From Nitrospirota bacterium (lineage in GTDB: Bacteria; Nitrospirota; UBA9217), in the NCBI GenBank assembly GCA_963737155.1, contig CAVTRN010000002.1, positions 168,287 to 232,286 on the forward strand: a stretch of DNA of 64,000 bases, given 5' to 3'. This document shows positions 2,849-61,514 of the stretch, one piece after another (within the stretch, counting starts at the first letter, position 1; the number at the start of each line of letters is the position of its first letter). Position numbers and translations under genes: made by a program. The notes below the pieces were generated by a model, which made no database searches, had not been told where the DNA came from, and was given only the letters and a program-made list of their open reading frames with translations.

Positions 2849-3264
2849 AACTGCTCCTTCCCTTGTGACCCCACTCTCGTTTAACAATGGAGACTGTTTA
2901 CAGAATACTTATGTATTCTTGGCGCCATGTAGTTCGCTGCCAACTATGCTGATGTCACATATTTATGATGTGTCTTTACATGGCCCAAAGTTAGGAGGTT
3001 ACCTACTTCAGGTCCGTATGTTCAAGTCTCAGGTGGTTTAAATATACGCGTTGGTTGACATAGGCCTGATAGCTGCTTTGGTCGAAGATGTATGGATCGC
3101 TGAAAAGGTACTCGACAGAAACGGCAATGTTGAGTTTTGAACTTGGCGAAAGAGAATAGACATAATGGTTGACAGTTGAAAAAGTGACCTGCCCCTTGTC
3201 ACCGTGGGTTATACTTGGATGCAATGGGTGTCCAAATACAGAGCCACAAACAAGGAGGCAGGTC

Positions 3265-4377
3265 ATGAAAGATTCTATCACAATCGTAGGACTCGATTCA
3301 GCAAAAAACTCCATAGCTGTAGCAACGGCCGAAATTGGCGGCAGCCAAGAGGTTCGCTACTACGGCAAAATCGGCGGCGACATGGCGTCATTGGACAAAA
3401 TGGTCAGAAAGCTTGAAAGCAAAGGCTCAGAACTGCACTTCGTCTATGAAGCCGGGCCGTGTGGTTACGAAATATACCGCCATCTAACCAAGAGAGGTTA
3501 CAAATGCACGGTTGTGGCACCATCGCTGATTCCCAAGAAAAGCGGAGATCGCGTCAAGACCGATCGTCGTGACGCGCAAAGTCTAGCCAGGCTGTATCGG
3601 GCCGGAGAACTGACTCCTGTTTACGTGCCCCAAGAGGATGATGAAGCCATGAGAGACCTGACCCGATGCCGCGAAGACGCAGTCAAGGCCCATCGCACTG
3701 CCCGGCAGAGGTTAGGCGCGATGCTCCTGCGGCATGGACACCGTTACTCTGGAGAAACCGCATGGACCCAAGCCCACATGCGCTGGTTGTCTGATATCAA
3801 GATGCCACACCCTGCACAGCAGATCACGCTGCAAGAGTACATCAACACGGTGAAGGAATGCGCAGAGCGTGTGGCCCGGCTTACGGAGCAGATTCAAACG
3901 CTTATGCCCACATGCCGAACGGCCCCTGTTGCACTCGCAATCCAATCGTTACGCGGCATCGCGGATGTAACTGCCGCGACCACCATGGCCGAGATCGGAG
4001 ACTTGGGACGTTTTGAAAATCCCAAGCAGCTCATGGGATACCTTGGATTGGTCCCTTCCGAATACTCCAGCGGCGACAGCACCAGACGGGGTGCTATCAC
4101 CAAAACCGGAAACACCCACGTCAGGCGCGCATTGATTGAAGCGGCCCAAGCCTACAGTCTGCCGGCCCGAGTGAGCCGGGTAATCCTCAAGCGGCAGGAG
4201 GGGCTGCCGAAAAATATCTGTGATATCTCCTGGAAAGCCCAGGTGCGTCTCTGCGGACGGTTCCGTAAACTCACGGCCAAAGGGAAGCCCAGGAACAAGG
4301 TGGTAACCGCCATTGCCAGGGAACTATGCGGCTTCATATGGGCAATTGCCCGGGAAGTGAATCTCCAGAGCGCATAA
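3265..4377 (+). CDS. IS110 family transposase (DEDD recombinase)
   Basis: ATG 3265 has AGGAGG upstream. The N-terminal IVGLDSAK... (RuvC-like DEDD) and C-terminal GIADVTAATTMAEIGDLGRFENPKQLMGYLGLVPSEYSSGDSTRRGAITKTGNTHVRRALIEAA (Transposase_20-like) are family hallmarks. Confidence 0.9.
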   Translation: MKDSITIVGLDSAKNSIAVATAEIGGSQEVRYYGKIGGDMASLDKMVRKLESKGSELHFVYEAGPCGYEIYRHLTKRGYKCTVVAPSLIPKKSGDRVKTDRRDAQSLARLYRAGELTPVYVPQEDDEAMRDLTRCREDAVKAHRTARQRLGAMLLRHGHRYSGETAWTQAHMRWLSDIKMPHPAQQITLQEYINTVKECAERVARLTEQIQTLMPTCRTAPVALAIQSLRGIADVTAATTMAEIGDLGRFENPKQLMGYLGLVPSEYSSGDSTRRGAITKTGNTHVRRALIEAAQAYSLPARVSRVILKRQEGLPKNICDISWKAQVRLCGRFRKLTAKGKPRNKVVTAIARELCGFIWAIAREVNLQSA

Positions 4378-8100: not shown

Positions 8101-8398
8101 TATACTTGCCGTTCGCGTTGCTGTAGGTAACCGATGAGGGAACCGAACTCTGCTCGCCGTTATAGCAAAGCGTAATCGTTTTGTTATTGATGGTCGAAGC
8201 ATCCATTTCGTTGCTGAATGTTATCACGATACCGTTGTTTATAGTTACGGAGACATTCAGCGCCCCATCGGCGGGTGTGATGGAGGTCACGGTGGGCGGC
8301 GTTATAGGGGCCGCCGGAAGCGGCCCCTTCTGGCCGCACGTCGAAAGCAGCATGACTGCTGCCTGCAGCACCATAAGTATAATAAATCGGTTCCTCAT
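5189..8398 (-). CDS. giant surface lipoprotein with SbsA/Big_5-like Ig domains and eight InlB-B-repeat-like modules
   Basis: 1069-aa ORF with a lipoprotein signal (MRNRFIILMVLQAAVMLLSTC). The N-terminal half has Ig-like units (ITPADGALNVSV..., VQPEDRSQNVS...). The C-terminal half alternates two ~75-aa module types (ITATVSSGSGSISPSG...GYSVAGVLVDGVS and TVTPSVSGSNGTISPS...GGTCGGTLNG...NCTVVASFS). Confidence 0.85.
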   Translation of the reverse strand: MRNRFIILMVLQAAVMLLSTCGQKGPLPAAPITPPTVTSITPADGALNVSVTINNGIVITFSNEMDASTINNKTITLCYNGEQSSVPSSVTYSNANGKYTAVLLPSVVLNPSTLYTVTVANTVMDTTGIAMSAAFTSSFITGVTMPLRVIDVQPEDRSQNVSTTTAISIMFSQPVDPSTVSSDTIILSTPTGNVPGNVYYNAATASATFEPLSPLPPNSIYIVNVTTGVQTVSGTPMIDAFVASFVTGAGPDIAAPMVMSALTIPSTTASAADVNTPISVTFSEPMLLTGLTPSSIIVSNGTTGIPGTIMYVDNTVIFMPSTSLAPSTLYTVSIPEAVSDLSLNSLSSEYTWSFTTEPEASDSVPPAVLSTFPTSSAVNVPIYNDVVALCSEAVLTSSITPTTTFTLVDGNGTSIPGWVTSSGATLVFTPTQPLAYSTNYVAEITSHATNLAGNPLVSNTSGGYAWSFTTEAIATFIITASTAGGNGSITPSGAVMLVSGATQTFSITPNAGYQIADVLVDGVSVGAVSSYAFTNVTANHTISASFSIITNTITATVSSGSGSISPSGSMTVNYGASQTFTFTPATGYSVAGVLVDGVSVGAVTSYAFNNVTTSHTISVSFSIDAFTVTSSVTGSNGTISPSTAQTVTYNATTAFTVTPATGYTASVGGTCGGTLNGTTYTTNAITANCTVVASFSINGNTITATVSSGSGSISPSGSVSVNYGASQTFTITPATGYSVAGVLVDGVSAGAVTSYTFTDVIANHTISASFSIKTFTVTPSVSGSNGTISPSAAQTVSYNTTTAFTVTPATGYTGTVGGTCGGTLNGTTYTTNAITANCTVVASFSINTNTITATVSSGSGSISPSGSVAVNYGASQNFTITPATGYSVAGVLVDGVSAGAVTSYTFTDVITNHTISASFSIKTYTVTPSVSGSNGTISPSTAQTVSYDLATTFTVTPATGYSASVGGTCGGTLNGNTYTTNAITANCTVVASFSIKTLTVTPSVSGSNGTISPSTAQTVDYNKTTVFTVTPASGYTASVGGTCGGALSGKKYTTDAITANCTVVASFTK
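5192..6980. repeat. coding tandem repeat, 447-bp unit (two ~75-aa modules) plus a 222-bp half unit
   Basis: Shadow ORFs recur at 5367, 5814 and 6261 (447-bp spacing). The KLATTVQFAVIA shadow motif sits at 5199, 5421, 5868 and 6315. Units are near-identical at DNA level. Confidence 0.8.
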
Positions 8399-19854: not shown

Positions 19855-21159
19855 TTAGAACGAAAGCACCTTCCCCATAAAGAGTATCAGGCCAGTTTGT
19901 TTTTCCCGAATAAAAAATATATAGGGATGATCGATCATAAGCGTCAGTTGAGGCAGCGGCACGCTCGTCGTACTCACCGAGATGCCGGTCGCGGCTGCTG
20001 CCTCTGTCCCGGACTCGTCCACGCTGATAAAGGTTTGATGGAAGACACCGCTGATAAATAGGTCGTGGTTCCCGTCAATGCCGGAGAAGTCCGCGGTAGC
20101 CGGATTGAATGCGTCGGTCATGCCCAGAGAACTCAAAATAGGAACCATGCTTGCGGTGTAAGTAAAGGTGAATTTCGGGAGAGAAAGATCTACTTCCTGA
20201 GCGGCCAACTGACTGGTAATGTCACCCAGTATGGTCGGCGTAAGCGAGGATAGAAACGCATCGAACGTATCGGGATCCGGCATGATCATGAGCATCGAAA
20301 AATTGTTTCCGGCATAGGGGATATCGACAGCCTGACATCCATCTGCCTGCGCATAAGACACCATAAAAGTTTGGCGCATAAAGGGAACCGATGATGTGGA
20401 ACTGTTCTGATTGAAAAAGGACTGATTCGTCGTGCTCGCTTCCGAAAACGGTGACGCCCAGTTTGCCTTGAACCATAGGGCGTTCGTAAGAACGACGCGG
20501 GTATTGGGTGTTACGCCTCCCTCGGGGATCAGGTTCTGGATCCTGTTATTCGTTTGGCTTTCCACCCATGCGTTGATCGTACTTCGCGCGTCCTCCGTCG
20601 CGTTGATGAAGTCAGCGAGATAAATGCCCGCACCGTAATTTACCGCGAGGGTGTCCAAATATGCCGGGAGAATGGGAAAACCCACTTGTCCCCAGATTGC
20701 ATTGGCGTTCCTGAGCATGGGGAGTTGAGCGCCGGTTGAGGTAATGGAACCTGTGCCCTCGCTCGTGATCAATAGGTCGAGCTCATTTAGGGCCATGTTA
20801 AGGCGGTCTTGGGGAAGAGAAAACGACAGCGCCTGTTCGATCCCGCTTAAAGTATTCCCGCCAGCGCCCGGCGCTGCAAGAGCAAAGGCCTGGGTTATGC
20901 TATACGGAGAGAAAGCGGTATTGCTGTTTCCGCTCGGGTCGAGAAGGGGGAAAACCTTAAGTGCGAAATCCGTGTTGCCCGCTATGACCGCCGTGAAGTC
21001 CTCGCCAGGTACTTGCGGGTTCGTGTCACGCGCCAGGGACGACTGCGCAATCTGATATTGCGGCGGCTGCGTATTGTTTCCGGATTTACTGCACGCTATT
21101 GCGAGACCAAGCAGGCAGAAGGAAAAGAACCGTAAATTAGAGATAATTTTACTACACAT
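19855..21159 (-). CDS. serpin family protease inhibitor, lipoprotein
   Basis: Lipobox LAIAC. FSPYSITQAFALAAPGAGGNT... and the hinge/RCL region VDESGTEAAAATGISVS...IDHPYIFFIRE are classic serpin features. A TTGACA-N18-AATATA promoter lies upstream. Confidence 0.9.
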   Translation of the reverse strand: MCSKIISNLRFFSFCLLGLAIACSKSGNNTQPPQYQIAQSSLARDTNPQVPGEDFTAVIAGNTDFALKVFPLLDPSGNSNTAFSPYSITQAFALAAPGAGGNTLSGIEQALSFSLPQDRLNMALNELDLLITSEGTGSITSTGAQLPMLRNANAIWGQVGFPILPAYLDTLAVNYGAGIYLADFINATEDARSTINAWVESQTNNRIQNLIPEGGVTPNTRVVLTNALWFKANWASPFSEASTTNQSFFNQNSSTSSVPFMRQTFMVSYAQADGCQAVDIPYAGNNFSMLMIMPDPDTFDAFLSSLTPTILGDITSQLAAQEVDLSLPKFTFTYTASMVPILSSLGMTDAFNPATADFSGIDGNHDLFISGVFHQTFISVDESGTEAAAATGISVSTTSVPLPQLTLMIDHPYIFFIREKQTGLILFMGKVLSF

Positions 21160-22616: not shown

Positions 22617-24199
22617 GAGCCTGTTGCTCAAATGCCAGCATAGCCGTTTATGATCGCCCATATGGGATAGTGCCAGACTGCAAATGGGGTATCTCTGCGA
22701 AGCACACGGCATGAATCAGCTGTCGTTTTCGTTCTTTATACTGCCATCTGGGCCGCAATCTCTTTGCCGCTTCGCCAAAGCTTCAAGAGATTGTGCGTCG
22801 CGCAGATGAGTTTCCATTCCTGGGAGCAGGCTTCAATCCCTCGGCGCATGTAGTGCCGGATGCCGCGATTGTCTTTAATCTGGCCAAAGATCGGTTCGAC
22901 GGTCTGGCCTCGTTTCTTATAAAGCTCTCTGCCCCGCTTGGTCAGGAGCTTCCTCTCCATCCTCTGCCGGAGTGTCAGGCTTTTTGGTATCCTCCCTTGG
23001 GGCGGGGATGATGCGGCGGCCTCTTTACGTTGCTTCCAGTCTTTCTTGGTTGCGATAAGATGTTCGGGACCGTCGGGAGTGATGGCCGCAAAGTTCTTCT
23101 CACTTGCGTAGCCGGCATCGCTCAGAGATATTTCGATCTTCAGTTCTTTTTGCAGGGCGATCTCGTTTAAGTTCTCCTGGGCCTTCTGGATCATGGGATG
23201 CAGCTGGTTGATGTCGTTTTCCTGGTTCGTGACCTCGGCGGCGATGATGATCTGCTCCTTGGTGACCACGGCCTGGCTGTTGTAGCCCTGAACATATCCG
23301 CTTCGGGTTTTCATGATCCTGCTGTCCGGATCAGTCATATTGGCCTTCGCTTCCGACGATGGCGTCGGATCAGGCTCCTGAGGTTTGCGGCCCCGTTTCT
23401 TGCTGCCGGTTTCAGCCTCTTGGGCCTGTCGTTCTTCGATCTTTGACTGTTGCTCGGCTGCTGCCTCTGCAGCCTGTTCTTCCAACCGCTTTTTGCACGC
23501 GGCAAGGCGGGCTCTGCGGCTGGTTCGGTCGGCAAGTTCATCAGGAAGTTCGTCGCCCCGTTTGTTTTGGCCGTACTGCCGGTCTTCCTCGGTGTCCTTG
23601 GCCTCCGCTTCATCGAGCATCCTCTTCACTTCCTGCTCGATATGTTCGTACGTGCGGTTGGCTTCCAGGGCTGCGTTAGCCTTTATCTTGCTCCCGTCAA
23701 GGGCCACGATGCCGACTTTGACGAGCCCGGCTTCCTTGCAGAGCTTGAGCATCTGTTTGAACAGCCCCTCCAGTGCCTGGCCGTTGTCCTTCCGAAATCG
23801 GCTGATGGTGCAGTGGTCCGGAACTTGGTTGGCGGCAATTACCTTGAATCCGATGTCCCGTTCGCAAAGCTTCTCGATCTCACGGGATGATCGGATACCG
23901 AGGCTGTAGGCATATAACAGCAGGGAGACCATCATTGACGGCTCAAAAGCTGCCTGGCCTTTTCCGTCCTGACGGTATTTTCGGTAGAATGCCGTAAGAT
24001 CCATTTCTGCCACGACGTCAAGGACCATCCAAACAAGGTCCTTGGATGGCAGCCACTCCTGCAAGGTGGGCGGCATGAGATATACTTGATCTCGGTTACA
24101 GTCTTTGAAATTGTAGGCCATCCAGCGTCTCCTTATATGCGTGATGACCAATACTATACTATTCGTATATTAATGTCAAATGATTTATGCAACAGGCTC
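22617..24199 (-). mobile_element. IS1182-family insertion sequence
   Basis: Terminal inverted repeats are GAGCCTGTTGC (22617-22627) and GCAACAGGCTC (24189-24199). A 4-bp direct duplication ATAA lies at 22613-22616 and 24200-24203. Removing the element restores the hydrolase frame. Confidence 0.85.
22736..24121 (-). CDS. IS1182 family transposase
   Basis: Started at ATG 24121 (AAGGAGA SD). MAYNFKDCNRDQVYLMPPTLQEWLP...MMVSLLLYAYSLGIRSSREIEKLCERDIGFKVIAANQVPDHCTISRFRKDN is the family N-terminal signature. A charged coiled region and a DDE C-terminus follow. Confidence 0.9.
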   Translation of the reverse strand: MAYNFKDCNRDQVYLMPPTLQEWLPSKDLVWMVLDVVAEMDLTAFYRKYRQDGKGQAAFEPSMMVSLLLYAYSLGIRSSREIEKLCERDIGFKVIAANQVPDHCTISRFRKDNGQALEGLFKQMLKLCKEAGLVKVGIVALDGSKIKANAALEANRTYEHIEQEVKRMLDEAEAKDTEEDRQYGQNKRGDELPDELADRTSRRARLAACKKRLEEQAAEAAAEQQSKIEERQAQEAETGSKKRGRKPQEPDPTPSSEAKANMTDPDSRIMKTRSGYVQGYNSQAVVTKEQIIIAAEVTNQENDINQLHPMIQKAQENLNEIALQKELKIEISLSDAGYASEKNFAAITPDGPEHLIATKKDWKQRKEAAASSPPQGRIPKSLTLRQRMERKLLTKRGRELYKKRGQTVEPIFGQIKDNRGIRHYMRRGIEACSQEWKLICATHNLLKLWRSGKEIAAQMAV

Positions 24200-36902: not shown

Positions 36903-39900
36903 TTAAATTGTCGATGACATTTGGTTGGAATAATTACTTTCCACGCCCGATGTATCCACATCCGAGACGACAAAGTAATAGGTTCCGGGCGCCATGTTTA
37001 ATATCTCGGTGATCGTGGAGGTGCCGGGATTTGGAACACTGACTACCTGCGTGTATACTCCGGATGCGGTTCCGTAATATAGGTTGTACGACGCTATATC
37101 AGCGGGAACCAACGCAGCTCCATTTGTATACGTCGTAGGGGCGGCCCAGTTAAGTGTCACGCTAACCGTAGACGGTGCTGCCGTAATTGTCAGCGAGGCA
37201 GTTGCTGAAGCGCCTCCATAGGAACATGAAATTACCGCCGATCCTGCGGCAACGGCAGTGGCAAGCCCATTCGAGCCCGCTGCGTTGCTGACCGTTGCAG
37301 CAGTCGCGTCGGAGGTACTCCAGGTTGCCAGGGCGGTTAGGTTCTGCGTCGTGTTGTTTGAATACGTTCCGGTCGCGGTAAACTGATAGGTTGTCCCGGT
37401 TGGAATAGATACCGTGAGGGGTGATATGGCGACCGAAACCAGGGTTGCCGGAGTCACGGTCAATGCTGCCGAGCCTGATACGCTCCCTGACGTCGCAGTA
37501 ATCGTTGTCGAACCCGTGGCTACCGGGGTTACGAGCCCATTGGATCCTGCGGCGTTGCTGATTGTTGCAATTGATGCCGATGATGACGCCCAAGTCACCG
37601 TCGTTGTAAGGTTTTGTGTAGTGCCGTCGGAATAGGTGCCGGTAGCGGTGAATTGCTCGGTGGTGCCTAACGCGATGCCTGGAGCGGACGGCGATATTGC
37701 TATGGAGGCGAGGGTTGCCGGAGTGACGGTCAATGTTGCCGAGCCTGATATGCTCCCTGACGTCGCAGTAATCGTTGTCGAACCCGTGGCAACCGGGGTT
37801 CCGAGCCCATTGGATCCTGCGGCATTGCTGATTGTTGCAATGGCTGTCGATGATGACGCCCAGGTCACCGTCGTTGTAAGGTTTTGTGTAGTGCCGTCGG
37901 AGTAGGTGCCGGTAGCGGTGAATTGCTCGGTGGTGCCTAACGCGATGCCTGGAGCGGACGGCGATATTGCTATGGAGGCGAGGGTTGCCGGAGTGACGGT
38001 CAATGTTGCCAAGCCTGATATGCTCCCTGACGTCGCCATAATCATTGTCGAACCTGTGGCAACCGGGGTTCCGAGCCCATTGGATCCTGCGGCATTGCTG
38101 ATTGTTGCAATTGATGTCGATGATGACGCCCAGGTCACCGTCGTTGTAAGGTTCTGGGTAGTGCCGTCGGAGTAGGTGCCAGTAGCGGTGAATTGCTCGG
38201 TGGTGCCTAACGCGAAGCTTGGAGCGGACGGTGTTACAGCAAGAGATACGAGTGTCGCCGGCGTAACGGTCAGCGTGGTAGATCCCGAGATTGCGCCCGA
38301 TGCAGCCGTGATCGTGGTCGAACCTGCGGCTGCCGGGGTCGCCAGGCCGTTTAAGCCGGACGCGTTGCTGATGGTTGCGACCGATGTTGACGCTGAGCTC
38401 CATGTCGCTGTTGCCGTAAGATTCTGCGTTGACCCATCGGAATACACGCCGGTAGCGGTAAATTGACTGGTAGTTCCAAGCGCGATGCTCGGGTTTGTCG
38501 GCGTTATTTCAAGGGAAACGAGCGTTGCCGGCGTTATGGTCAAAAGAGTGGTGGCTGATATGCTGCCGGATGCGGCCGCGATTGTTGTGGAACCGATAGC
38601 CGCAGCGGTTGCCAGCCCGTTAGAACCTGCAGCATTGCTGATGGCTGCAGCGGATGTCGCCGATGAACTCCATGTCACCGAATTTGTCAGGTTTTGCGTT
38701 GATCCGTCGGAGTAGGTACCCGTGGCGGTAAATTGGTCGATTGAGCCATTTGTTATGCTTGGATTTGTCGGCGTTATTCCAAGGGAAACGAGCGTTGCCG
38801 GCGTTATGGTCAAAAGAGTGGTGGCCGACATGCCGCCGGATGTTGCCATGATCGTCGCCGACCCTGTTGCGACGGGAGTGGCCAGCCCGTTGGAACCTGC
38901 GGCATTGCTGATGGCTGCAGCGGATGTCGCCGATGAACTCCATGTCACCGAATTTGTCAGGTTTTGAGTTGATCCGTCGGAATAGGTGCCAGTAACGGCA
39001 AATTGTTCGGTAGTCCCCATCGCGATGCTTGGATTGGTAGGTGTTATATCCAGGGATACAAGCGTTGCAGGCGTAACCGTAAACGCAGTTGCTCCTGACA
39101 CGCTTCCCAGTGTGGCCGTGATCGATGCTGAACCTGAGGCTACCGGGGCCGCCAGTCCCATTGAGCCAGCCGTATTGCTGATGCTTGCCACGGCAGATGA
39201 CGAAGAACTCCAGACCACGCTTGTCGTCAGATTCTGCGTAGAGTTATCGGAATATGTTCCCGTTGCGACAAATTGCTGGATCATTCCCAGCGCCAGGGTT
39301 GGATTCGCCGGCGATATTGCTATGGAGACGAGCGTTGCCGGAGTCACCGCCATAGCCGTGGAGCCGGAAATGTTGCCAAACGTCGCTGTGACCGTCGCGT
39401 TGCCGGAAGATGCCGGCGTTGCGAGCCCTATGGATCCCGTTATCGTGCTGACACTTAATATGGATGGTGAGGATGAGTTCCATGTCACATTCTGGGTCAT
39501 ATTTTGAGTGGAATTGTCCGAGAAAGTTCCGGTAGCTGTAAACTGCTCCGTTGCCCCTATTGCGATGCTTGAGTTGGCGGGAGTTACCGCGATGGATTGC
39601 AAGGTAGCCGGCGTTGTTGTTAATGTCGTCCAGCCGGATATTTTCCCTCTTCTTGCAGTAATGGTGTTTCTACACGAGCCTCTGTCACCGATATTCCCTA
39701 ACCACATTATTATGGCGTTGTCTGTGTCTGACGATCCCCACGTCACCGACGATGTTATGTCCTGGGTTGAATTGTCCGAATATATTCCTGTTGCCGAGAA
39801 CTGCACGGTGGTCCCGGCCGCTATCGTTGGGTTTGTCGGCGTCACTTCAATGGCAACGAGCTGGGCTTGAGTTGAACTGCCGGTGCCGCCTGCCGAGCCG

Positions 39901-39986
39901 GACTGGGTGCCGCCTGCGCATGAGGCCAGAATTACCGCTGACAGCAAAGTCAGCACAAATGCAATAAAATCTCTGCTTTTTAACAT
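36903..39986 (-). CDS. giant surface lipoprotein with about ten Big_2 Ig-like domains and a C-terminal FN3-like domain
   Basis: 1027 aa with lipobox ILASC. Repeated units read VTPATLVS(L/I)xITPxxPSIALGTTEQFTATGTYSDGSTQNLTxxVTWSSS. The C-terminus VTLNWAAPTTYTNGAAL...YNLYYGT...GTYYFVVSDVD is FN3-like. Confidence 0.9.
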   Translation of the reverse strand: MLKSRDFIAFVLTLLSAVILASCAGGTQSGSAGGTGSSTQAQLVAIEVTPTNPTIAAGTTVQFSATGIYSDNSTQDITSSVTWGSSDTDNAIIMWLGNIGDRGSCRNTITARRGKISGWTTLTTTPATLQSIAVTPANSSIAIGATEQFTATGTFSDNSTQNMTQNVTWNSSSPSILSVSTITGSIGLATPASSGNATVTATFGNISGSTAMAVTPATLVSIAISPANPTLALGMIQQFVATGTYSDNSTQNLTTSVVWSSSSSAVASISNTAGSMGLAAPVASGSASITATLGSVSGATAFTVTPATLVSLDITPTNPSIAMGTTEQFAVTGTYSDGSTQNLTNSVTWSSSATSAAAISNAAGSNGLATPVATGSATIMATSGGMSATTLLTITPATLVSLGITPTNPSITNGSIDQFTATGTYSDGSTQNLTNSVTWSSSATSAAAISNAAGSNGLATAAAIGSTTIAAASGSISATTLLTITPATLVSLEITPTNPSIALGTTSQFTATGVYSDGSTQNLTATATWSSASTSVATISNASGLNGLATPAAAGSTTITAASGAISGSTTLTVTPATLVSLAVTPSAPSFALGTTEQFTATGTYSDGTTQNLTTTVTWASSSTSIATISNAAGSNGLGTPVATGSTMIMATSGSISGLATLTVTPATLASIAISPSAPGIALGTTEQFTATGTYSDGTTQNLTTTVTWASSSTAIATISNAAGSNGLGTPVATGSTTITATSGSISGSATLTVTPATLASIAISPSAPGIALGTTEQFTATGTYSDGTTQNLTTTVTWASSSASIATISNAAGSNGLVTPVATGSTTITATSGSVSGSAALTVTPATLVSVAISPLTVSIPTGTTYQFTATGTYSNNTTQNLTALATWSTSDATAATVSNAAGSNGLATAVAAGSAVISCSYGGASATASLTITAAPSTVSVTLNWAAPTTYTNGAALVPADIASYNLYYGTASGVYTQVVSVPNPGTSTITEILNMAPGTYYFVVSDVDTSGVESNYSNQMSSTI
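37330..39850. repeat. coding tandem repeat, about 264-270-bp unit (one Big_2 domain)
   Basis: Shadow ORFs start at 37636, 37906 and 38176 (exact 270-bp spacing, near-identical). More diverged units lie at about 38485, 38722, 38986 and 39508. Confidence 0.8.
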
Positions 39987-47581: not shown

Positions 47582-47613
47582 GAAAACATAAATTCATTGT
47601 GCAGGAGGTGGTC

Positions 47614-48894
47614 ATGGACCTTTGGCTTCGATGGATGACGGTTGTGCGGGAGTTGCGGCCTGCCTGTTCACGCATGAGGACGTTTCTGTGGCTGTCGCTA
47701 TGCCTTGTCGGTATGTGTATTCGGCCGAATCTTGCCGGCGTCACCAGCATCGTAAGAGCCATCGGCCTTCAAGTAGTCTTGTATGACAAGCTCCTCGACT
47801 TCTTCCATTCACCGGCGCTCGATATTGACGCGCTTATCCGCCTAGGGGCCAATACCGTGGTCGGCATATGTTCTGGAGTCATGAAGAAAAACGACCGGTT
47901 GCTGCTCGTTGGAGATGGATTGAAGGCGCCAAAGTCTGGCAAAAAGGTGCCCGCTGTTAAGCTCCTCCATCAGGAATCGGATTCCAATACCAAGCCGGAG
48001 TATATCATGGGGCATGCCACGCAAGCGGTCGCAATCTTAGTCGGCGCGCTCAGGACCGTATTCGCCGTCCCTCTTAAAAGCCGTATCCATGAGGGAGTTG
48101 TCTTTTCCAACAGGAACAAGCTCACCCTGCTTGATAAGATGGTCCTGATGACCGAGGCTCTCGATCTTCCAGCGTTTTACTTTATCGCCGACTCGTATTA
48201 TTCCGCGCGGAAGGTTATAGCCGCGCTTCTTCAGAAGGGCAACCACCTCGTCTCTCAGGTGAGGATGAATGCCGTTGCCTATATGCCGGCTGGTGCGCAT
48301 GCGGGCACGAGAAGGAAAAGACGGCCAAAGGTGTATGGAAAGAAGGTAATACTGAGAACCCTTTTTGACGACCCTGCTGCCATGTGCGAGGCGGAAAGCC
48401 CGGTCTATGGAGAGAAAAAAGTTTTGTTGAAGTATCGCTGTGCTGATCTTCTGTTTAAAAGAATCGGCATCAGTGTGCGGTTCGTAGCCGTGAATCATCC
48501 AAACCGGGGACGGTGCATCCTGCTTTCCACAGACCTGTTCTTGTCACCTCTTGAGTTTATCGCCCTGTACGGTCTCCGCTTTAAAATTGAGGTCTCGTTC
48601 AAGCAGGCTGTCAGGACAATTGGCGCGTATGCCTATCACTTCTGGATGAAAAACATGACGCCGATTCGAAAATCCTCTGGCGATCAGTATCTCCATAGAA
48701 AGACCGATGCATACCGAACTGCGGTCAGAAGAAAACTCGATGCCTACCACAGGTTTATTCAGATCGGGCTTATCGCCCAAGGGCTTCTTCAATATCTTTT
48801 GATCTGTGTCCCCGAACTTGTATGGGCCAAGTTCGGCTCCTGGCTCCGCACCATTCGCCCTGGCATTCTCCCTACGGTTACGTCCCTCAACTGA
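47614..48894 (+). CDS. DDE transposase (IS4/IS701-like superfamily, family unresolved)
   Basis: Started at ATG 47614 (AGGAGG SD). ...LLLVGDGLKAPKSGKKVPAVKLLHQESDSNTKPEYIMGH...FYFIADSYY...RFKIEVSFKQAVRTIGAYAYHFW has a DDE-transposase flavour. Confidence 0.7.
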   Translation: MDLWLRWMTVVRELRPACSRMRTFLWLSLCLVGMCIRPNLAGVTSIVRAIGLQVVLYDKLLDFFHSPALDIDALIRLGANTVVGICSGVMKKNDRLLLVGDGLKAPKSGKKVPAVKLLHQESDSNTKPEYIMGHATQAVAILVGALRTVFAVPLKSRIHEGVVFSNRNKLTLLDKMVLMTEALDLPAFYFIADSYYSARKVIAALLQKGNHLVSQVRMNAVAYMPAGAHAGTRRKRRPKVYGKKVILRTLFDDPAAMCEAESPVYGEKKVLLKYRCADLLFKRIGISVRFVAVNHPNRGRCILLSTDLFLSPLEFIALYGLRFKIEVSFKQAVRTIGAYAYHFWMKNMTPIRKSSGDQYLHRKTDAYRTAVRRKLDAYHRFIQIGLIAQGLLQYLLICVPELVWAKFGSWLRTIRPGILPTVTSLN

Positions 48895-50714: not shown

Positions 50715-51098
50715 ATGAGATTGTGCCTAGGTATCGATCTACATTTAAGTAATAGTTATTCGGGTATCATCGATGAAAATGGCAAGAGAGTGTTCAAGAG
50801 GAAGCTGCCGAATGATCCGGAGAAGTTTCTGGATGCATGGATCAAACGAACGATGTATTCCCGGATCGAACCCATGAAAAAGGTAGCCCGAACGCTCCGA
50901 GATCACAAAGATCTGGTGTTGAACTGGTTTCGGGCAAAAGGGGCTGTATCCGGTGGTATGGTCGAGGGCTTAAACCTCAAAGCGAAATTGACTATGAGAA
51001 AAGCATATGGTTCTCGGAACGTAGAAACGCTACAAGTAGCTTTATATTATACACTTGGTAAGCTACTGGAACCGAAAATCTGGCACATATTCTGCTGA
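50715..51098 (+). pseudogene. chimeric ORF: IS110-family N-terminal stub fused to an ISL3-family transposase C-terminus
   Basis: Residues 1-42 (MRLCLGIDLHLSNSYSGIIDENGKRVFKRKLPNDPEKFLDAW) are IS110-like. The rest (RIEPMKKVARTLRDHKDLVLNWFRAKGAVSGGMVEGLNLKAKLTMRKAYGSRNVETLQVALYYTLGKL) is the ISL3 C-terminal signature. Junction is near 50841. Confidence 0.7.
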
Positions 51099-51302
51099 GG
51101 AGCCGAAAATCCTCATCGGTAACGACAACCGGGAAGATAAAAAGATGATATAATATGATGGAGAAAATGTCATGAGGCATTGGAAGCTGGGGAAGCGTTT
51201 GAAAGTCTACTTATGGTCGACAGAAATACTCCGGGCATGTTACTATCAGACACCCTTATGCCCATGATGAATTTCTTCGAATTTTCTGGAAGGTGATTAC
51301 TG

Positions 51303-51890
51303 ATGCGATCATTCATGATCTATGTGACGGTTTTGCTCTTTGCATCCGTTCTGTATGCCGGTGAGACACAGTTTACCGTCCCCATCGATGATTCGCCGAC
51401 AACCGGTCCCGTAAGCGCGCCGGTGACCATCATCGAGTTCCTCGATTTCCAATGACCACATTGCGTGGCGGCCGGTCCGACCGTCAAAAAGATCATGGAT
51501 GTTTACAAAGGAAAAGTGAGACTCGTTATCAAAAACTATCCTTATATCTACCGTGATTATTCCTATCTTGCCGCAGAGGCATCGCTTGCGGCGCGGGATC
51601 AGGGTAAATACTGGGAGATGCATGACCTGCTGCTGAAAAGTTCGCCAAAGCTCGATCGGGACAGTCTTGTCAAGTATGCGCGGGAGCTGGGACTTGATGT
51701 GCAAAAATTCACTGAGGCCGTCGACGGTAATAAACACTTAGCAGAAATCGAGCGCGACGAGAAACTCGCAGTTGACATGGACTTGTTCAATACGCCGACG
51801 TTTTTCATCAACGGCCGCAAGGTTATAGGAGAGCGGCCTTTCACATATTTCAAGAAAATCATCGACGAGGAATTGAGCGTTCCACGGTAA
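51303..51890 (+). CDS. periplasmic DsbA-like thiol:disulfide oxidoreductase with in-frame TGA (candidate Sec) in a U-P-H-C motif
   Basis: ATG 51303 (AAGGTGA SD), signal peptide, then ...IIEFLDFQ-TGA(51453-51455)-PHC..., in frame with track ORF 51465..51890 (thioredoxin fold, ...NTPTFFINGRKV). Confidence 0.6.
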
Positions 51891-53012
51891 ATGAAAGTTT
51901 TCAGCTCAGCGTTCATTATCGGAAAAAATAATCTCAGGGAATCTCCCATGCTGCCACGATTGATCGTGTTAACAGGAATATCGCTTTTCGTTATTACGTT
52001 TAATACTGCAGTGGCCGGCAACTTCGAACCGTTCGTGTCCGTTCCTGTCCCAGAGCAGAATCCCCAAACGTCAGACAAAATCGAGCTCGGCAAGATGCTT
52101 TTTTTCGATCGGCGCCTCTCGGGAGACGGCACCATGAACTGCGCGACCTGCCATGACCCCGAAAAAGCTTTTACCGACGGTCTCGATATATCCCTCAGCT
52201 ATCCCACGACGAAAAACTGGAGAAACTCGCCGACGCTCGTTAACGTGGCCTTCCAGAAGTATCTTTTCTACGACGGCCGCGCGTTGAGCCTTGAGGACCA
52301 GGCGCTTTTCCCCATGATGTCCGCTTTCGAGATGAATCGAAATCTTGACTTTTTAGAGGAAGTAATCCGCTCGGTGCCCGAGTATGTCAACGCCTTTAAA
52401 AAGGTGTTCAATGGAGAGCCGACGCGTGAAAGGATTGCCATGGCCATAGCCTCCTTTGAGCGTACGATCATATCCGTGAATACGCCACTTGACCGTTATT
52501 TGAAAGGTGATAAAAACGCGCTTTCCGATGACGCCAAGAAAGGGCTTGTGATTTTTATGGGAAAAGGCCGGTGCGGGGAATGCCACTACGGAGTAAACCT
52601 GTGTGATGATAAATTTCATGCTCTGGGTGTGCCGGAGAACCCGGAACACCTGTCGGACCCCCAGATAGCCGTAACGCGCCGGTTTGTTGCCAAAATTAAT
52701 CGTTATGAAGAATATCGCACTCTGGCGGAGGATCTAGGCAGATACCTGGTAACGAAGGACAAGAAAGACTGGAAGGCCTTCAGGACGCCGACGCTTCGAG
52801 AGGTAGGAAAGACCGCCCCCTATATGCATAACGGAATTTTCTCGACGCTCGACGAGGTGATCGAATTCTTTGACAGAGGAGGTGGCAAGGACAACACTGT
52901 GCTTAAGCCTCTGGGGTTGACGGATAAGGAAAAAAAATATCTTAAAACATTCCTTGTCGAAGGACTGGCAGGCTTGACGGAGAAATATCATTACCCTAGG
53001 GTGCCGCAATAA
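51891..53012 (+). CDS. di-haem cytochrome c peroxidase (CCP/MauG family)
   Basis: Two CxxCH motifs (CATCHDP, CGECHYG) and FRTPTLREVGKTAPYMHNGIFSTLDEVIEFFDRGGG. ATG 51891 directly abuts the upstream TAA. ATG 51948 is an alternative start giving a cleaner signal peptide. Confidence 0.9.
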   Translation: MKVFSSAFIIGKNNLRESPMLPRLIVLTGISLFVITFNTAVAGNFEPFVSVPVPEQNPQTSDKIELGKMLFFDRRLSGDGTMNCATCHDPEKAFTDGLDISLSYPTTKNWRNSPTLVNVAFQKYLFYDGRALSLEDQALFPMMSAFEMNRNLDFLEEVIRSVPEYVNAFKKVFNGEPTRERIAMAIASFERTIISVNTPLDRYLKGDKNALSDDAKKGLVIFMGKGRCGECHYGVNLCDDKFHALGVPENPEHLSDPQIAVTRRFVAKINRYEEYRTLAEDLGRYLVTKDKKDWKAFRTPTLREVGKTAPYMHNGIFSTLDEVIEFFDRGGGKDNTVLKPLGLTDKEKKYLKTFLVEGLAGLTEKYHYPRVPQ

Positions 53013-53503: not shown

Positions 53504-54061
53504 ATGTTATGTCCTTCATGCAAAGAAGAGATCCAGGCTGGTGCTATTATGTGCAAGCACTGCGGAAGAATGCTAAGTGCAGGTTCGAGCGTGGCTCAAC
53601 TTAGCACAGTGCCAAAACAAACACAATCATTTCAAACTAAATTCAGTTTGTTGCCAAATGAAAAATTAATTATTGATGGGGTTATGACCTACAAGAAAAG
53701 CACTTTTGGAAATTACATTTGCTCGTGCTATTTGACTAATCAAAGGTTAGTTGTGTGTGGCTTTGGTTTTAAAGGTGTCGCATTGCTTGGTCCCATTGCA
53801 CAATTCATTCCATTGTTTATTAAATTAAAGAGCATTGCGTTTCAAATTCCGTGGGTCAATCTCTCAAGTCTGCAAAAAGGTAAACATGGCTTGGCGGATA
53901 AGCTAACATTTAATACGAATAATGGGGAAGAATATATACTAGTTATAGGCGCAAAAAAAGACCTATGGTATTCAGCATTAAAAAAAGTAACCGGTATCAA
54001 CCTTAAACATAATGGGTCAATTGCTCATCGTGTACGTAAAAACTTTACTAAAATGTCATAA
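53504..54061 (+). CDS. zinc-ribbon plus PH/GRAM-like domain hypothetical protein
   Basis: N-terminal CPSC-x12-CKHC zinc ribbon. The rest resembles bacterial PH-like domains (YICSCYLTNQRLVVCG). AAGGAG SD. Confidence 0.55.
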   Translation: MLCPSCKEEIQAGAIMCKHCGRMLSAGSSVAQLSTVPKQTQSFQTKFSLLPNEKLIIDGVMTYKKSTFGNYICSCYLTNQRLVVCGFGFKGVALLGPIAQFIPLFIKLKSIAFQIPWVNLSSLQKGKHGLADKLTFNTNNGEEYILVIGAKKDLWYSALKKVTGINLKHNGSIAHRVRKNFTKMS

Positions 54062-57950: not shown

Positions 57951-59578
57951 TAGAGTCTGTATTTTAATGCAAAAAACGCATTGCGCGAGTGCGACCGAGG
58001 ACGCCGTAAGATGTGGTAATTCCCCCGCATTCGCGTTTATAGCCTCGCCGTTTGAGGTAGTTTCGTAATAACATAGCCATAATGCTAATTTTGAACGCAC
58101 TGGTGCTATAAGGGTTGATTGATGATTGAGTTTTCGTTACTGTCGGGCCGTTTGAATCTTGGTGATCAGCAGTCCAGTCATAACCCGAATATTATACGCA
58201 ATTGCACTCCAGTAAATTTTCGCGTTGAAGTGTGGTCGTGTCTTCCATTCGCAGCGAAACATATCGAACCCTCTTTTGAAATTCGATATGACAGCCTCGA
58301 TGCCGCTCCGCCACTTCTTAAGACGCGTTTCCAGGTTCAGGCTGCTCGTCAAATTCTTGAGCGATCCAACGATCTTGTTGAATACGATATTGACGACCCC
58401 TTTATTTTTCGCCAGTTGCTGGTTCAAGAGAGACGCATAGCCGCCGTCCGTCGTCATATCGCGCGGCACGATGCCATAGTTTTCCTTGATTCGATCAATC
58501 ACGCTGCCGTATTCCTGAGTGTCGCTGGGGTTGCCATCAAGAATCTTGCAGTCGATAATCAGCATGCTCGCACCTGTCGCCAGATTGATCTTATGCCCGA
58601 ACGTCGCTTCACGTTTGCCTTTTACGATGATATCGGTATGATCCTCAAAGATCGAAAACAGCTTGTCCTCGTTCGGCACTTTCTCTCCCAGGATCTCGTG
58701 GCGATGCGTCATGCTGTAAACCCTCTCCGCCTTCGGGAGAAGATTCTTGATTTCAGTCGCAAGAGCCAAAGCCGCATCGTCTGCGTACCGAAGCGAAGGC
58801 AACACAACAAGCGCGGCCTCAGCCTGATTAATGCTGGTTCGAAGCAATTTCGACTGTTTTTCAAAGGTTTCTTTGCGCTTCTCGCCCGGCTTCGTGTTGT
58901 TGATCTTGCCGAAATGCTTCTTGGCCTGCTTCTTGTACCGCCGCCCCGTGATCACTCCACCGGTCTCTTCAGCGAGTTTTACGAGCAGCCGGTCAAAGGT
59001 CTTGATGCAGTCCCACATCAGCGAATTGTTCGTCGGATAATGGACGTTTGTCTCGATTGCCGTGGAATCGGTTCGCGCCTTGCTGAAATCATCAAGTCCT
59101 TCCGCTTGGGCAATCTTGTTGATTGCGATCATCACTTGCTCAAGCGTTTCCGCTTTGATCATCGAGATGTACTTCTGCCAGACCGAGAAGGATATGGGGG
59201 ACCTGCCGTTAAGTTTGAGAAACAGCACGCAGATGCGAGAATCGTGTTGGGCGTACTCCAACTCCCGATATGTCAGCGTCTTCATCTCCTTATACAACGC
59301 GCCGCGCAGAATTTGCTCGATTGTGGGGGTGTCCTTTCTGCTAAGACTTTTTCCCGTGCTGCCCTTGAAGTCCCGTTTGACAAGCTCGTAAATTTCGGGA
59401 TGCAACGACAAAATCGTGTCGATAACCGCGAATTCCGTGTTGACTGCCCAGTGCGGATTCTCAAGCGTGAGTGTCAATTCGTTCAAAAGCTTCATCGTTT
59501 CCCCCTTGCTGATTTTGTTACGCCACTATACTTTTATCGTGCAGAATCAGCAAGTTAAATGATTAAATACAGACTCTA
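57951..59578 (-). mobile_element. IS5/ISNCY-like insertion sequence
   Basis: Terminal inverted repeats TAGAGTCTGTATTTTAAT (57951-57968) and ATTAAATACAGACTCTA (59562-59578). It carries a single transposase gene. Confidence 0.7.
58137..59495 (-). CDS. DDE transposase (IS4/IS5 superfamily, ISNCY-like)
   Basis: 452 aa; ...ARTDSTAIETNVHYPTNNSLMWDC..., ...DMTTDGGYAS..., ...IEAVISNFKRGFDMFRCEWK...YWSAIAYNI; AAGGGGGA SD. Confidence 0.85.
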   Translation of the reverse strand: MKLLNELTLTLENPHWAVNTEFAVIDTILSLHPEIYELVKRDFKGSTGKSLSRKDTPTIEQILRGALYKEMKTLTYRELEYAQHDSRICVLFLKLNGRSPISFSVWQKYISMIKAETLEQVMIAINKIAQAEGLDDFSKARTDSTAIETNVHYPTNNSLMWDCIKTFDRLLVKLAEETGGVITGRRYKKQAKKHFGKINNTKPGEKRKETFEKQSKLLRTSINQAEAALVVLPSLRYADDAALALATEIKNLLPKAERVYSMTHRHEILGEKVPNEDKLFSIFEDHTDIIVKGKREATFGHKINLATGASMLIIDCKILDGNPSDTQEYGSVIDRIKENYGIVPRDMTTDGGYASLLNQQLAKNKGVVNIVFNKIVGSLKNLTSSLNLETRLKKWRSGIEAVISNFKRGFDMFRCEWKTRPHFNAKIYWSAIAYNIRVMTGLLITKIQTARQ

Positions 59579-61043: not shown

Positions 61044-61514
61044 ATGGGAGAAGTCATTCACACATCCCGCATAAGGATAGTTCGGGAAAAGGGGCCCACT
61101 CGCAAAGCTGTGATCGAGGGATTTAACGAACCAATTTATTATGGCGTGCATGGCGGAATCAAGAAATTTTACAAAGTCGAACCCGAGGAAGAGCACGCAG
61201 CCACGCTCGACCATATTGTGGCTGCAACAGCAGGCTGAATGATGGGAACACTGGCCGCGGCGCTGGCCGGAAAGAAAATACGAACGTCCGAAGAGCTTTA
61301 CTCGGCCGATGTTGAAGGAGACATTGAGAACGTAAATGGCATTCTGAAAATCACGAAGATTAGGGTAAAGTACTATCTCAAAGTACCGGCAGGGAAATCC
61401 GCTGAAGCAAGAGCGGCATTTTCCTCATACATAGTTGGATGTCCGGCGGCGCAAAGTGTCATCGGTTGTATAGATATCAGGGACGATCTTGCAATCGAAG
61501 AAATGAAAGAGTAA
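61044..61514 (+). CDS. OsmC/Ohr-family peroxiredoxin-like protein with in-frame TGA (candidate Sec) at the peroxidatic Cys position
   Basis: ATG 61044 (AAGGAGG SD). ...LDHIVAATAG-TGA(61236-61238)-MMGTLAAALAG... runs in frame into track ORF 61239..61514, which carries the second OsmC Cys (VGCPAAQSV). Hairpin CTGGCC/GGCCGG at 61251-61270. Confidence 0.65.

Follow-up and report, generated by a model that had tools for sequence, protein, structure and literature searches.

The DsbA-like (PF01323) and DsbG-like (PF13462) families of selenoproteins with a UxxC motif have been known since 2005, and OsmC-like selenoproteins form a further catalogued family (PMC1088965, PMC1794560, PMC9312934, PMC13188914); for the surveyed DsbA/DsbG-like families the catalogues describe neither an operon partner nor a function. 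Here we analyse a 64,000-nucleotide stretch of contig CAVTRN010000002.1 from a Nitrospirota bacterium (hereafter the window, with positions counted from its first nucleotide), which encodes a DsbA-like protein with an in-frame TGA at its attacking Cys and, directly downstream, a di-haem protein of the cytochrome c peroxidase (CCP)/MauG superfamily. We hold with high confidence that the first of these is a genuine selenocysteine (Sec)-decoded gene equipped with a selenocysteine insertion sequence (SECIS), and that the two genes form a conserved module. We place Sec at the attacking Cys because Sec and Cys share one alignment column among the homologs, the TGA is invariant, it is followed by a covarying hairpin with frozen synonymous sites, and TGA serves as a normal stop codon elsewhere in the window.

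The original prediction, made from the letters of the window, had referred to Sec-containing DsbA-like families from selenoproteome surveys, and such families are indeed on record (PMC1088965, PMC1794560, PMC9312934). The window gene resembles the surveyed DsbA/DsbG-like selenoproteins in its Pfam domains, in the UxxC motif with Sec at the N-terminal position, in a bacterial SECIS (bSECIS) past the UGA, in having Cys-containing homologs, and in the occurrence of its relatives in anaerobic lineages of the Deltaproteobacteria type. It belongs to a clade that differs from them by the specific motif U-P-H-C, by a di-haem gene that nearly always comes next, and by its frequent location in operons of formate dehydrogenase (FDH) and FdhE. 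A literature search, which left most subscription journals outside its reach, found no link of such selenoproteins to CCP-like enzymes, FdhE or FDH operons; the selenoprotein class is known, and its near-constant two-haem partner is apparently undescribed.

The coding sequence of the selenoprotein (51303-51890, forward strand), delineated from the sequence, Pfam matches and structure matches, comprises 195 codons including Sec51, plus the TAA stop at 51888-51890. The frame that opens at ATG 51303 begins with MRSFMIYVTVLLFASVLYAGETQ, runs through ...PVTIIEFLDFQ to the TGA at 51453-51455 and continues as PHCVAAGPTVKK... to the TAA; the residues preceding the TGA are MRSFMIYVTVLLFASVLYAGETQFTVPIDDSPTTGPVSAPVTIIEFLDFQ and those following it PHCVAAGPTVKKIMDVYKGK.... 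Both a Shine-Dalgarno-like AAGGTGA (51290-51296, forward strand, 6 nt 5' of the ATG) and a leader resembling a signal peptide, which the original prediction had pointed out, can be read in the sequence. The putative signal peptide MRSFMIYVTVLLFASVLYAG (51303-51362, forward strand) was recognised by eye, with likely cleavage after LYA; a hydrophobic leader of the n-h-c type is visible by eye in the window protein and in all its relatives, and the window leader contains no lipobox Cys. Further upstream, a weak match to a Sigma-70-like promoter, TCGACA-18-TACTAT with a TG extension (51217-51246, forward strand), lies 57 nt 5' of the start codon, and is not significant by itself (6 matches in the region against 3.7 expected from shuffled sequences).

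When U is replaced by C, the product matches the Pfam domains Thioredoxin_4 (PF13462; E-value 4e-26, residues 31-189, 92.5 bits against a cutoff of 23.2) and DSBA (PF01323; 2e-20, residues 42-186, 74 bits against 25.6), both of which extend across the TGA at 51453. In the alignment with the best solved relative, 3gyk (E-value 8e-20), the segment EFFDYNCPYC corresponds to EFLDFQ-U-PHC, so that the TGA falls opposite the nucleophilic Cys. Sequence, Pfam span and structural alignment thus agree with the starting claim that an in-frame TGA sits at the attacking Cys of a CPHC-type DsbA-like protein. The TGA at 51453-51455 (forward strand) is assigned as Sec51, in the position of the nucleophilic Cys of CxxC, on the basis of its invariance and of the Cys homologs at the same column, and it opens the redox motif U-P-H-C (51453-51464, forward strand), defined from the sequence and the alignment of relatives. 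A second motif, T-P-T-F (residues 164-167, 51792-51803, forward strand), in which T164, P165, T166 and F167 are invariant in the family, is what we take to be the cis-Pro loop of thioredoxin-fold oxidoreductases. The alignments with 3gyk and BdbD would place U-P-H-C at the N-terminus of helix 1, and the cis-Pro loop can be positioned in the same way. The product is predicted to be a periplasmic, putatively exported oxidoreductase of the DsbA/Thioredoxin_4 fold.

E. coli DsbA has the motif C30-P-H-C33. With it and with the DsbA-like proteins 3gyk, BdbD (3eu3) and 4pwo the window protein shares the thioredoxin fold with a helical insert, the xPHC motif, the T-P loop and predicted export, whereas it differs from E. 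coli DsbA in having Sec for the nucleophilic Cys, in lacking a DsbB-type partner encoded nearby, and in its low sequence identity (E-value about 1e-5). Among curated selenoprotein models the best match is NCBIfam NF041057, the Rcas_1661 thioredoxin-like (seleno)lipoprotein (8.7e-27, residues 32-189), likewise a thioredoxin-like, putatively exported (seleno)protein. We rejected membership in that family, as the score is 94.2 bits against a cutoff of 190, the first 80 model positions remain unmatched, and a lipobox Cys is missing.

With the U-to-C sequence as query, 2443 matches were obtained among 5.8 billion proteins. Of the best 120, as many as 118 are fragments (131-143 aa, 77-99% identity) whose alignments are confined to the C-terminal 66-72% of the query, and all 118 begin with M/V-AAGPTVKK, immediately past PHC; the same truncation thus recurs in the gene calls of hundreds of independent contigs. 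One full-length database entry (P0002) carries Trp exactly at the Sec column. A scan of genome contigs with a full-length alignment gave 80 loci, ranking uninterrupted Cys-type homologs first and missing the close relatives, which were recovered by a metagenome scan with the C-terminal fragment (80 relatives). Motif scanning of the 80 genome loci revealed TGA at the exact column in seven, from a member of Nitrospiraceae (L001), Desulfoprunum (L002), Desulfofustis (L003), Geoalkalibacter (L004, with U-P-F-C), Vicinamibacterales (L030), Acidobacteriota (L037) and Anaerolineales (L078), while about 70 more distant homologs, mostly from Myxococcota and Chloroflexota, carry TGC or TGT there; in the column-by-column count, 52 distant homologs have one of these two codons opposite the TGA. 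The alignment of Cys homologs to the Sec column, which had been proposed as a check of the initial reading, is thereby confirmed. In the metagenome set, TGA is found in 76 of the 76 relatives whose contigs include the position (54-87% identity), and TAA, TAG or a sense codon in none. The idea that close relatives might possess TGC or TGT while this locus decays finds no match in these 76 assessable sequences. Altogether the same codon is TGA in 84 loci with 37-87% identity, a count that includes the window and one identical Logan contig.

The part of the gene upstream of the TGA is evidently coding. The frame 5' of the TGA is open in every TGA relative and encodes a hydrophobic leader followed by (V/I)P(I/L)(G/D)DSPxxGPxxAPVTIIEFxDFQ; across these 50 codons the protein is conserved and the synonymous sites vary (about 0.9-1.9 bits), which indicates that the N-terminal segment is translated in the same frame as the downstream part. 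An in-frame ATG, GTG or TTG within ten codons past the TGA is missing in 30 of the 83 Sec-type loci, so re-initiation is not the conserved way to express the C-terminal part. Elsewhere in the window TGA terminates 6 of the 23 Pfam-supported genes; hence it is not reassigned in this genome. A window-wide scan for genes interrupted by TGA yielded 52 mechanical candidates, and only the DsbA-like gene and an OsmC-like gene (described below) are protein-like on both sides. We also found a sole close relative in the Cys form (L162, protein P0021, 61% identity), with TGC at about position 677. It retains a recognisable remnant of the hairpin 3' of the TGC (UCGAUCGGUCCGAUCG), adjoins a degenerate cytochrome-b fragment and a MarR-like gene in place of the di-haem gene, and gives the impression of having recently exchanged Sec for Cys and lost the partner gene.

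Directly past the UGA we found a hairpin of the bSECIS type at 51466-51486 (forward strand), with the apical loop G51475 U51476 C51477, identified by folding, covariation and frozen synonymous sites. It spans +14 to +34 from the U of the UGA, and its stem consists of six pairs (51466-86 U-A, 67-85 G-C, 68-84 G-U, 69-83 C-G, 70-82 G-C and 71-81 G-C), a C.A mismatch (72/80) and two upper pairs (73-79 C-G and 74-78 G-C). The original prediction had found no convincing SECIS and only stems of 4 bp; this no longer holds, the stem noted at 51473-51483 being just the top of the present hairpin. Among 79 distinct sequences 86.6% of the cells are paired, a share that falls to 22-50% if the 3' arm is shifted by 1-3 nt. 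Both sides have changed in five of the nine pairs, and the covariation score (0.108) exceeds those of all 500 shuffles. In one relative (L117) GCG has become GCA and ACC has become ACT, a G-C to A-U exchange that is synonymous on both sides, another relative (L126) shows a further G-C to A-U exchange, and the distant Sec forms L030 and L037 have G-C for C-G; the mismatch position itself is occupied by C-G in 15 sequences and by U-A in 10. The most telling single result comes from the codons: in 71 sequences the four-fold degenerate codons +5 to +9 (GCG GCC GGT CCG ACC) display a synonymous entropy of 0-0.13 bits, as compared with a mean of 1.77 and a minimum of 0.91 bits for 47 other conserved four- and six-fold degenerate columns of the gene, which indicates selection at the RNA level on top of selection on the protein. 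The hairpin segment is also more stable in Sec-type than in Cys-type genes (-9.9 vs -6.3 kcal/mol, p=9e-7), although the latter come from GC-richer genomes.

The published bSECIS model calls for an apical loop of 3-9 nt, an upper stem of 4-16 bp, a loop start of the form N1-G-[G|U]-N-N2, a distance of 16-37 nt between the UGA and the loop, and a minimum free energy of at most -7.5 kcal/mol (PMC13188914, Fig. 2A). The window element falls within this model, with G-G-U-C-C at the loop, a spacing of 19 nt, eight pairs plus the C.A mismatch, and -8.6 kcal/mol. In the SECIS of E. coli fdhF, G23 and U24 lie at the same distance from the UGA as the G-U of the window loop. The element further resembles the SECIS of E. 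coli fdhF and fdnG as a hairpin that follows the UGA directly inside the coding sequence and has a small loop with G-U, and it differs from that of fdhF in the unrelated sequence of its stem and in the 1x1 C.A mismatch in place of a bulged U.

The original prediction had drawn support for Sec from a second redox gene with the same signature at 61236, and this gene withstands scrutiny. It is an OsmC-like gene of 156 codons (61044-61514, forward strand), supported by Pfam and by the DNA of its relatives, with Sec at the UGA 61236-61238; its start is most likely ATG 61044. The reading is ...LDHIVAATAG, then the TGA, then MMGTLAAALAGKK..., with MMGTLAAAL after the TGA, and the product matches Pfam OsmC with 32.8 bits against a cutoff of 27.5. 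A hairpin at 61251-61270, with a G-G-C loop at 61259-61261 (+24 to +26), has the same geometry as that of the DsbA-like gene. Database relatives comprise many fragments of 89-94 aa beginning with MMGTL, full-length Cys forms, and some full-length forms with Trp. At the DNA level, in 12 of the 12 relatives inspected, an open reading frame (ORF) of 64 aa ending in TGA lies directly 5' of one of 91 aa, and both the TGA and the stem are conserved. Gene finders call the window gene in the same way, as pieces of 64 and 91 aa. The entries with Trp at the Sec column are P0121, P0127, P0128, P0131, P0134 and P0145; in these, as in the DsbA-like entry mentioned above, the Trp likely stems from gene calling of short metagenomic contigs under code 4/25, in which TGA encodes Trp. 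Beside the OsmC-like gene in five of the relatives (L165-L169, at about 2068-2874) we noticed a GRDB-like gene (glycine reductase B family) called as pieces of 175 and 86 aa, which may be another selenoprotein split at its UGA.

The gene downstream of the DsbA-like selenoprotein (51891-53012, forward strand, 373 codons when counted from ATG 51891) encodes a di-haem protein of the CCP/MauG superfamily (Pfam CCP_MauG, 2e-50). That the TAA of the selenoprotein gene is immediately followed by ATG 51891, as originally noted, is correct, but the di-haem gene need not start at this ATG; translation may instead begin at ATG 51948, giving MLPRLIVL... as a putative signal peptide, because the alignments with homologs begin near residue 20-40. 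The two haem-binding motifs, C84-A-T-C-H88 (52140-52154, forward strand) and C228-G-E-C-H232 (52572-52586, forward strand), are each 100% conserved, the former among 46 clade members. Other hallmarks of the superfamily have been replaced. In canonical enzymes the peroxidatic haem has a distal His (Paracoccus His85, Pseudomonas His71), an inter-haem Trp is present (Trp108, Trp94), and the high-potential haem has a Met as axial ligand (Met289, Met275). The alignments place Tyr104 of a YPTT motif (52200-52202, conserved in at least 95% of the clade) at the distal His, Tyr127 (52269-52271, at least 70%) at the inter-haem Trp, and Phe327 (52869-52871, at least 70%) at the axial ligand of the second haem, which is Met289 in CCP and Tyr294 in MauG (all on the forward strand). 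These three substitutions are consistent in alignments to Paracoccus CCP, to Geobacter MacA and CcpA, and to MauG. Met312-His313 (52824-52829, forward strand), which are invariant, lie in a PYMHNG motif that corresponds to the canonical PYFHSG, and may provide a replacement axial ligand. We had considered Met312 as the conserved axial haem ligand itself and dropped this assignment, as the alignments to three CCPs and MauG put the canonical position at Phe327. About 21 extra conserved residues are inserted between 251 and 279, and the clade has no extra conserved Cys that might form a disulfide substrate, C238 not being conserved.

Solved structures matching the di-haem protein include CCPs (E-values 1e-52 to 1e-40), MbnH (3e-39) and MauG (1e-17). 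The best matches are the bacterial di-haem CCPs of Paracoccus (2c1u) and Pseudomonas (1eb7) and the Geobacter proteins MacA (4aal) and CcpA (3hq6), with E-values of 1e-52 to 1e-47; the window protein is like them in its two CxxCH motifs, two-domain layout and putative signal peptide, and unlike them in Tyr104, Tyr127, Phe327, PYMHNG in place of PYFHSG and the insertion of about 21 aa, all conserved in its clade. With MauG and MbnH it shares the superfamily and the property of being a di-haem enzyme encoded by the gene next to one specific partner protein. It differs from them in scoring below the family cutoffs of NCBIfam (227 vs 444 bits for the MauG model and 216 vs 363 for MbnH; TIGR03791, TIGR04039), in the Phe at the place of MauG Tyr294, and in its partner, a redox selenoprotein and not a quinoprotein precursor or MbnP. 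The label of CCP/MauG peroxidase given to it at the outset therefore holds at the level of the superfamily and the two CxxCH motifs, but not in the sense of a canonical CCP, since three hallmark residues are replaced; judged by these alignments, the partner is best placed within the CCP/MauG superfamily as a subfamily of its own. An independent Logan assembly, ERR12035941 (L081), is identical to the window over 13.3 kb save for one missing T (its position 10928, corresponding to 52735), which frameshifts the di-haem gene into pieces of 286 and 62 aa; the window version restores the conserved EDLGRYL and is intact.

To quantify the association of the two genes we used the 63 Sec-type loci that extend 600 nt or more downstream. 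In 58 of them the selenoprotein gene is directly followed by the di-haem gene (gaps of -46 to about +300 nt, measured to the first aligned residue); the latter is displaced by an insertion in two (L093, by 2.3 kb with a PIN-toxin-like gene, and L102, by 0.85 kb) and is absent from three (L083 and the distant L030 and L037). Around the 51 Cys-type loci, no CCP-like gene occurs within 10 kb. Pre-computed annotation of long contigs independently shows the same gene order, e.g. in the Nitrospirota metagenome-assembled genome GCA_035516155.1, which reads DUF485 - SSF - Acs - [50 aa + 141 aa DSBA] - CCP_MauG - Zn-ribbon. The proposal to look for conserved adjacency of the dsbA-like and ccp genes has thus been answered in the affirmative. 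As for the further suggestion of a dedicated pair of selenol-oxidoreductase and peroxidase, the conserved linkage (58/63 in Sec-type vs 0/51 in Cys-type loci) supports it at the level of a conserved gene pair, from which the biochemical role may be surmised. At the nucleotide level, homology of the window to its nearest relatives is confined to 51284-51886 and 52014-52980, and the flanks consist of insertion sequence (IS) remnants, namely an ISL3 fragment (50715-51098) and a DDE_5 gene (47599-48894); the pair in the window is thus a free-standing two-gene cassette. No terminator-like site was found between the two genes or 3' of them. A gene for a zinc-ribbon membrane protein (53504-54061, forward strand, in the window; 11657-12508 in L175; 6607-7458 in L083) is syntenic 3' of the pair in the closest Nitrospirota relatives and directly follows the selenoprotein gene in L083. 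Its product resembles the NCBIfam "zinc ribbon-containing (seleno)protein DG" weakly and below threshold (20.8 bits vs 130).

Clustering of the neighbors of Sec-type loci resolved two recurrent architectures. In Type A (about 38 loci, including short contigs that show only the membrane subunit) the order is fdhA - fdnH (4Fe-4S) - NrfD-like/cytochrome-b membrane subunit - U-dsbA - di-haem gene - FdhE-like, and fdhA is itself called in pieces of 201 and 821 aa, split at its own Sec codon. Examples of such FDH-embedded pairs are L001, L003, L102, L109, L112, L113, L123, L128, L132, L135, L147 and L153, among others, and this context spans the interval of -5.3 kb to +2.4 kb relative to the Sec codon. 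Type B, formed by the loci most closely related to the window, reads DUF485 - ActP-like - acetyl-CoA synthetase - U-dsbA - di-haem gene - FdhE-like/Zn-ribbon. Tblastn detected no homologs of FDH subunits, FdhE, Acs or ActP in the window. The linked FdhA is a close homolog of the periplasmic tungsten FDH of D. vulgaris and D. gigas (E-value 1e-100 over the last 277 residues). According to two papers citing Oliveira et al. 2024, a surface disulfide of DvFdhAB involving Cys872 acts as an allosteric redox switch for activity and O2 protection (PMC11134731, PMC13397495). Of the switch cysteines, Cys845 is retained in 18 of 18 linked FdhA sequences and Cys872 in 14 of 18.

Several observations weigh against the interpretation of the locus as a Sec-decoded gene within a conserved module. 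A C.A mismatch interrupts the window hairpin mid-stem, and some of the nucleotide conservation is driven by the protein, the Gly-Pro encoded in the loop region being conserved as well. Folding around 51450-51530, which had been suggested as a check, recovers a local hairpin that agrees with the bSECIS model, but the 71 nt at 51450-51520 fold no better than shuffled sequences (z=0.88), and the same is true of the whole segment 61236-61300 of the OsmC-like gene (z=0.88); the evidence comes from the local hairpin and from the comparison of relatives and not from the overall stability. Rfam gave no match at gathering thresholds in the whole window, and at permissive E-values only spurious snoRNA matches in 51380-51580, a null result that we regard as uninformative, as Rfam may hold no suitable model of the bacterial SECIS. 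Although its two selenoprotein genes would imply that the genome has a functional Sec system, a scan of the 64-kb window found no tRNA at all, and hence no tRNA-Sec, and a domain search of its large ORFs found no selA, selB or selD. L083, the closest relative, keeps the TGA gene without the di-haem gene, so the pair is not obligatory. Finally, the locus is set among IS elements and lacks the acs, fdhE and FDH genes of its relatives, which is compatible with a decaying region, though both genes are intact. It is this last point that would suit a pseudogene, i.e. a DsbA-like gene decaying in an IS-rich region whose Cys codon has by chance mutated to a stop, together with the transposase genes and fragments that flank the locus (47599-48894, 50715-51098, 58137-59495), the missing usual neighbors, and the 1-nt deletion in the CCP gene of the independent assembly of the same DNA. 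However, the TGA stands at the identical codon in all 84 loci across 37-87% identity and is never TAA or TAG in the close clade, both halves are constrained as protein without further disruption of the frame, and the hairpin is conserved and covaries, so that the chance reading raised by the original prediction is hardly credible and is already effectively refuted by the comparative data. It is very improbable, too, that translation stops at UGA 51453 to give a 50-aa peptide and re-initiates at GTG 51465 to give a product of 141 aa without the CxxC motif. All databases call the 141-aa product, and GTG or ATG does occur at codon +4 in 53 of the 83 Sec loci, but the remaining 30 have no in-frame start within 10 codons, the GTG at +4 belongs to the base of the hairpin, the P-H-C codons that separate the TGA from the GTG keep their amino acids while their synonymous sites vary, and the re-initiated product would lack the signal peptide, the beta1 strand and both redox residues. 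Decoding of the UGA as a standard residue (Trp, Cys or Gly), by near-cognate reading or a reassigned code, would account for the Trp at the Sec column of P0002 and of several OsmC-like entries, which are most simply explained as gene-caller translations under code 4/25. We find such decoding very unlikely, as TGA terminates 6 of 23 well-supported window genes, and the only two protein-like read-through genes in 64 kb both have the TGA at a catalytic Cys site, followed by a SECIS-like hairpin, and belong to catalogued selenoprotein families (PMC1088965, PMC9312934).

With Sec decoding thus preferred, the pathway established in bacteria suggests that SelB with Sec-tRNA(Sec) would be recruited by the hairpin 51466-51486 and that Sec would be inserted at the UGA. 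The 195-aa precursor would be exported via its signal peptide, leaving a mature protein of about 175 aa, in which, by the chemistry of the family, the U51-P-H-C54 center would cycle between the selenol/thiol and the selenylsulfide. Compared with a thiol, a selenol attacks faster as a nucleophile and is the better leaving group, and the P-H dipeptide is that of the oxidising E. coli DsbA. The selenoprotein and di-haem genes would be co-transcribed, and the di-haem enzyme presumably also exported. The biochemical meaning of the pair can be approached through gene linkage, from which it would be a periplasmic peroxide-linked redox couple with the selenoprotein as the dedicated redox partner: H2O2 would be reduced at the haems and the U-x-x-C center oxidised or re-reduced, with electrons drawn from the selenoprotein or passed back via it, and the outcome would be either removal of peroxide or the introduction of disulfides into client proteins at the expense of peroxide. 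The pair may in many relatives serve the periplasmic Sec/W-Mo FDH of the shared operon.

On the evidence of linkage, we consider direct functional coupling of the selenoprotein to the di-haem enzyme probable, with some reservation; the loss of relay and ligand residues seen in the di-haem sequence fits a partner other than soluble cytochrome c. A less probable alternative, though one to be taken seriously, is that the two proteins are independent, co-regulated periplasmic antioxidants, a selenol peroxidase-like thioredoxin-fold protein and a haem peroxidase, that exchange no electrons. L083 and the distant Sec forms L030 and L037, which have the selenoprotein without the di-haem gene, are in its favor, as is the general chemistry of selenoproteins, by which Sec in a UxxC thioredoxin fold is able to reduce peroxides directly; yet the adjacency is tight, often overlapping, in 58 of the 63 loci and in at least two phyla, and is never seen beside Cys-type homologs, and the loss of canonical ligand and relay residues from the di-haem protein hints at a partner of a non-standard kind. 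The same absence of canonical CCP residues could be read in another way, with the selenoprotein either as a maturation or repair factor that keeps the CxxCH of the apo-di-haem protein reduced, in the manner of CcmG or ResA, or as the target of a modification of the MauG/MbnH kind. MauG and MbnH act on a specific partner protein encoded nearby, and the 227 and 216 bits obtained with their models, though below the cutoffs, point in the same direction. We find this explanation doubtful, since the di-haem protein is closer to CCPs (1e-52) than to MauG (1e-17) and lacks the Tyr294 ligand of the latter; moreover, as these families are generally understood, the CcmG and ResA reductases are of the TlpA type and lack the DsbA-like form with its helical insert, and dipeptides of the CPHC type go with oxidising DsbAs. 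Returning to direct coupling, a more specific and rather speculative version, to which we assign a low probability, takes up the usual company of FdhE: the pair might form an H2O2-driven selenylsulfide relay that acts on the Cys845-Cys872 switch disulfide of FDH, and thus be its operator in vivo. Peroxide would serve the di-haem enzyme as oxidant for the U-x-x-C protein, which would then close the FDH disulfide or, after stress, assist in its reopening. This version is suggested by the roughly 38 FDH-linked loci, by the FdhA proteins that keep both switch cysteines, and by the documented switch; the window copy, detached from FDH, would then have different targets or serve an FDH whose genes lie elsewhere.

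The window is unusually rich in genes and fragments of transposases, which lie at 3169-4377 (forward), 22736-24151 (reverse), 47599-48894 (forward), 50715-51098 (forward) and 58137-59495 (reverse), of the types IS110, DDE/DUF772, DDE_5, ISL3 (a C-terminal fragment) and DDE_Tnp_1. Unrelated to the pair are a full-length bacterial serpin (19855-21159, reverse strand; Pfam Serpin, 5e-101) and a couple of Ig-like repeat proteins, each about 1000 aa long (5189-8398 and 36903-39986, both on the reverse strand), with four Big_5 and ten Big_2 domains.

For the annotation of this family, the consequence is that every gene caller and database we examined splits the gene into an ORF of 50 aa and a "thioredoxin domain protein" of about 141 aa without signal peptide or active site; hundreds of database entries are wrong in the same way, some of them with a spurious Trp at the position of Sec. 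The clade also offers a clean and well-sampled bacterial SECIS, with covariation and frozen synonymous sites, that is useful for training SECIS models. As regards the organism, two such genes within 64 kb suggest that this genome uses Sec in periplasmic redox defence. The pairing, the lost hallmark residues of the di-haem protein, and the location in FdhE/FDH operons point to a dedicated periplasmic selenol/haem redox module in anaerobes. If it were true that this module operates the oxygen-protection switch of FDH, it would matter for sulfate reducers, for syntrophs and for the biotechnology of CO2-reducing FDHs.

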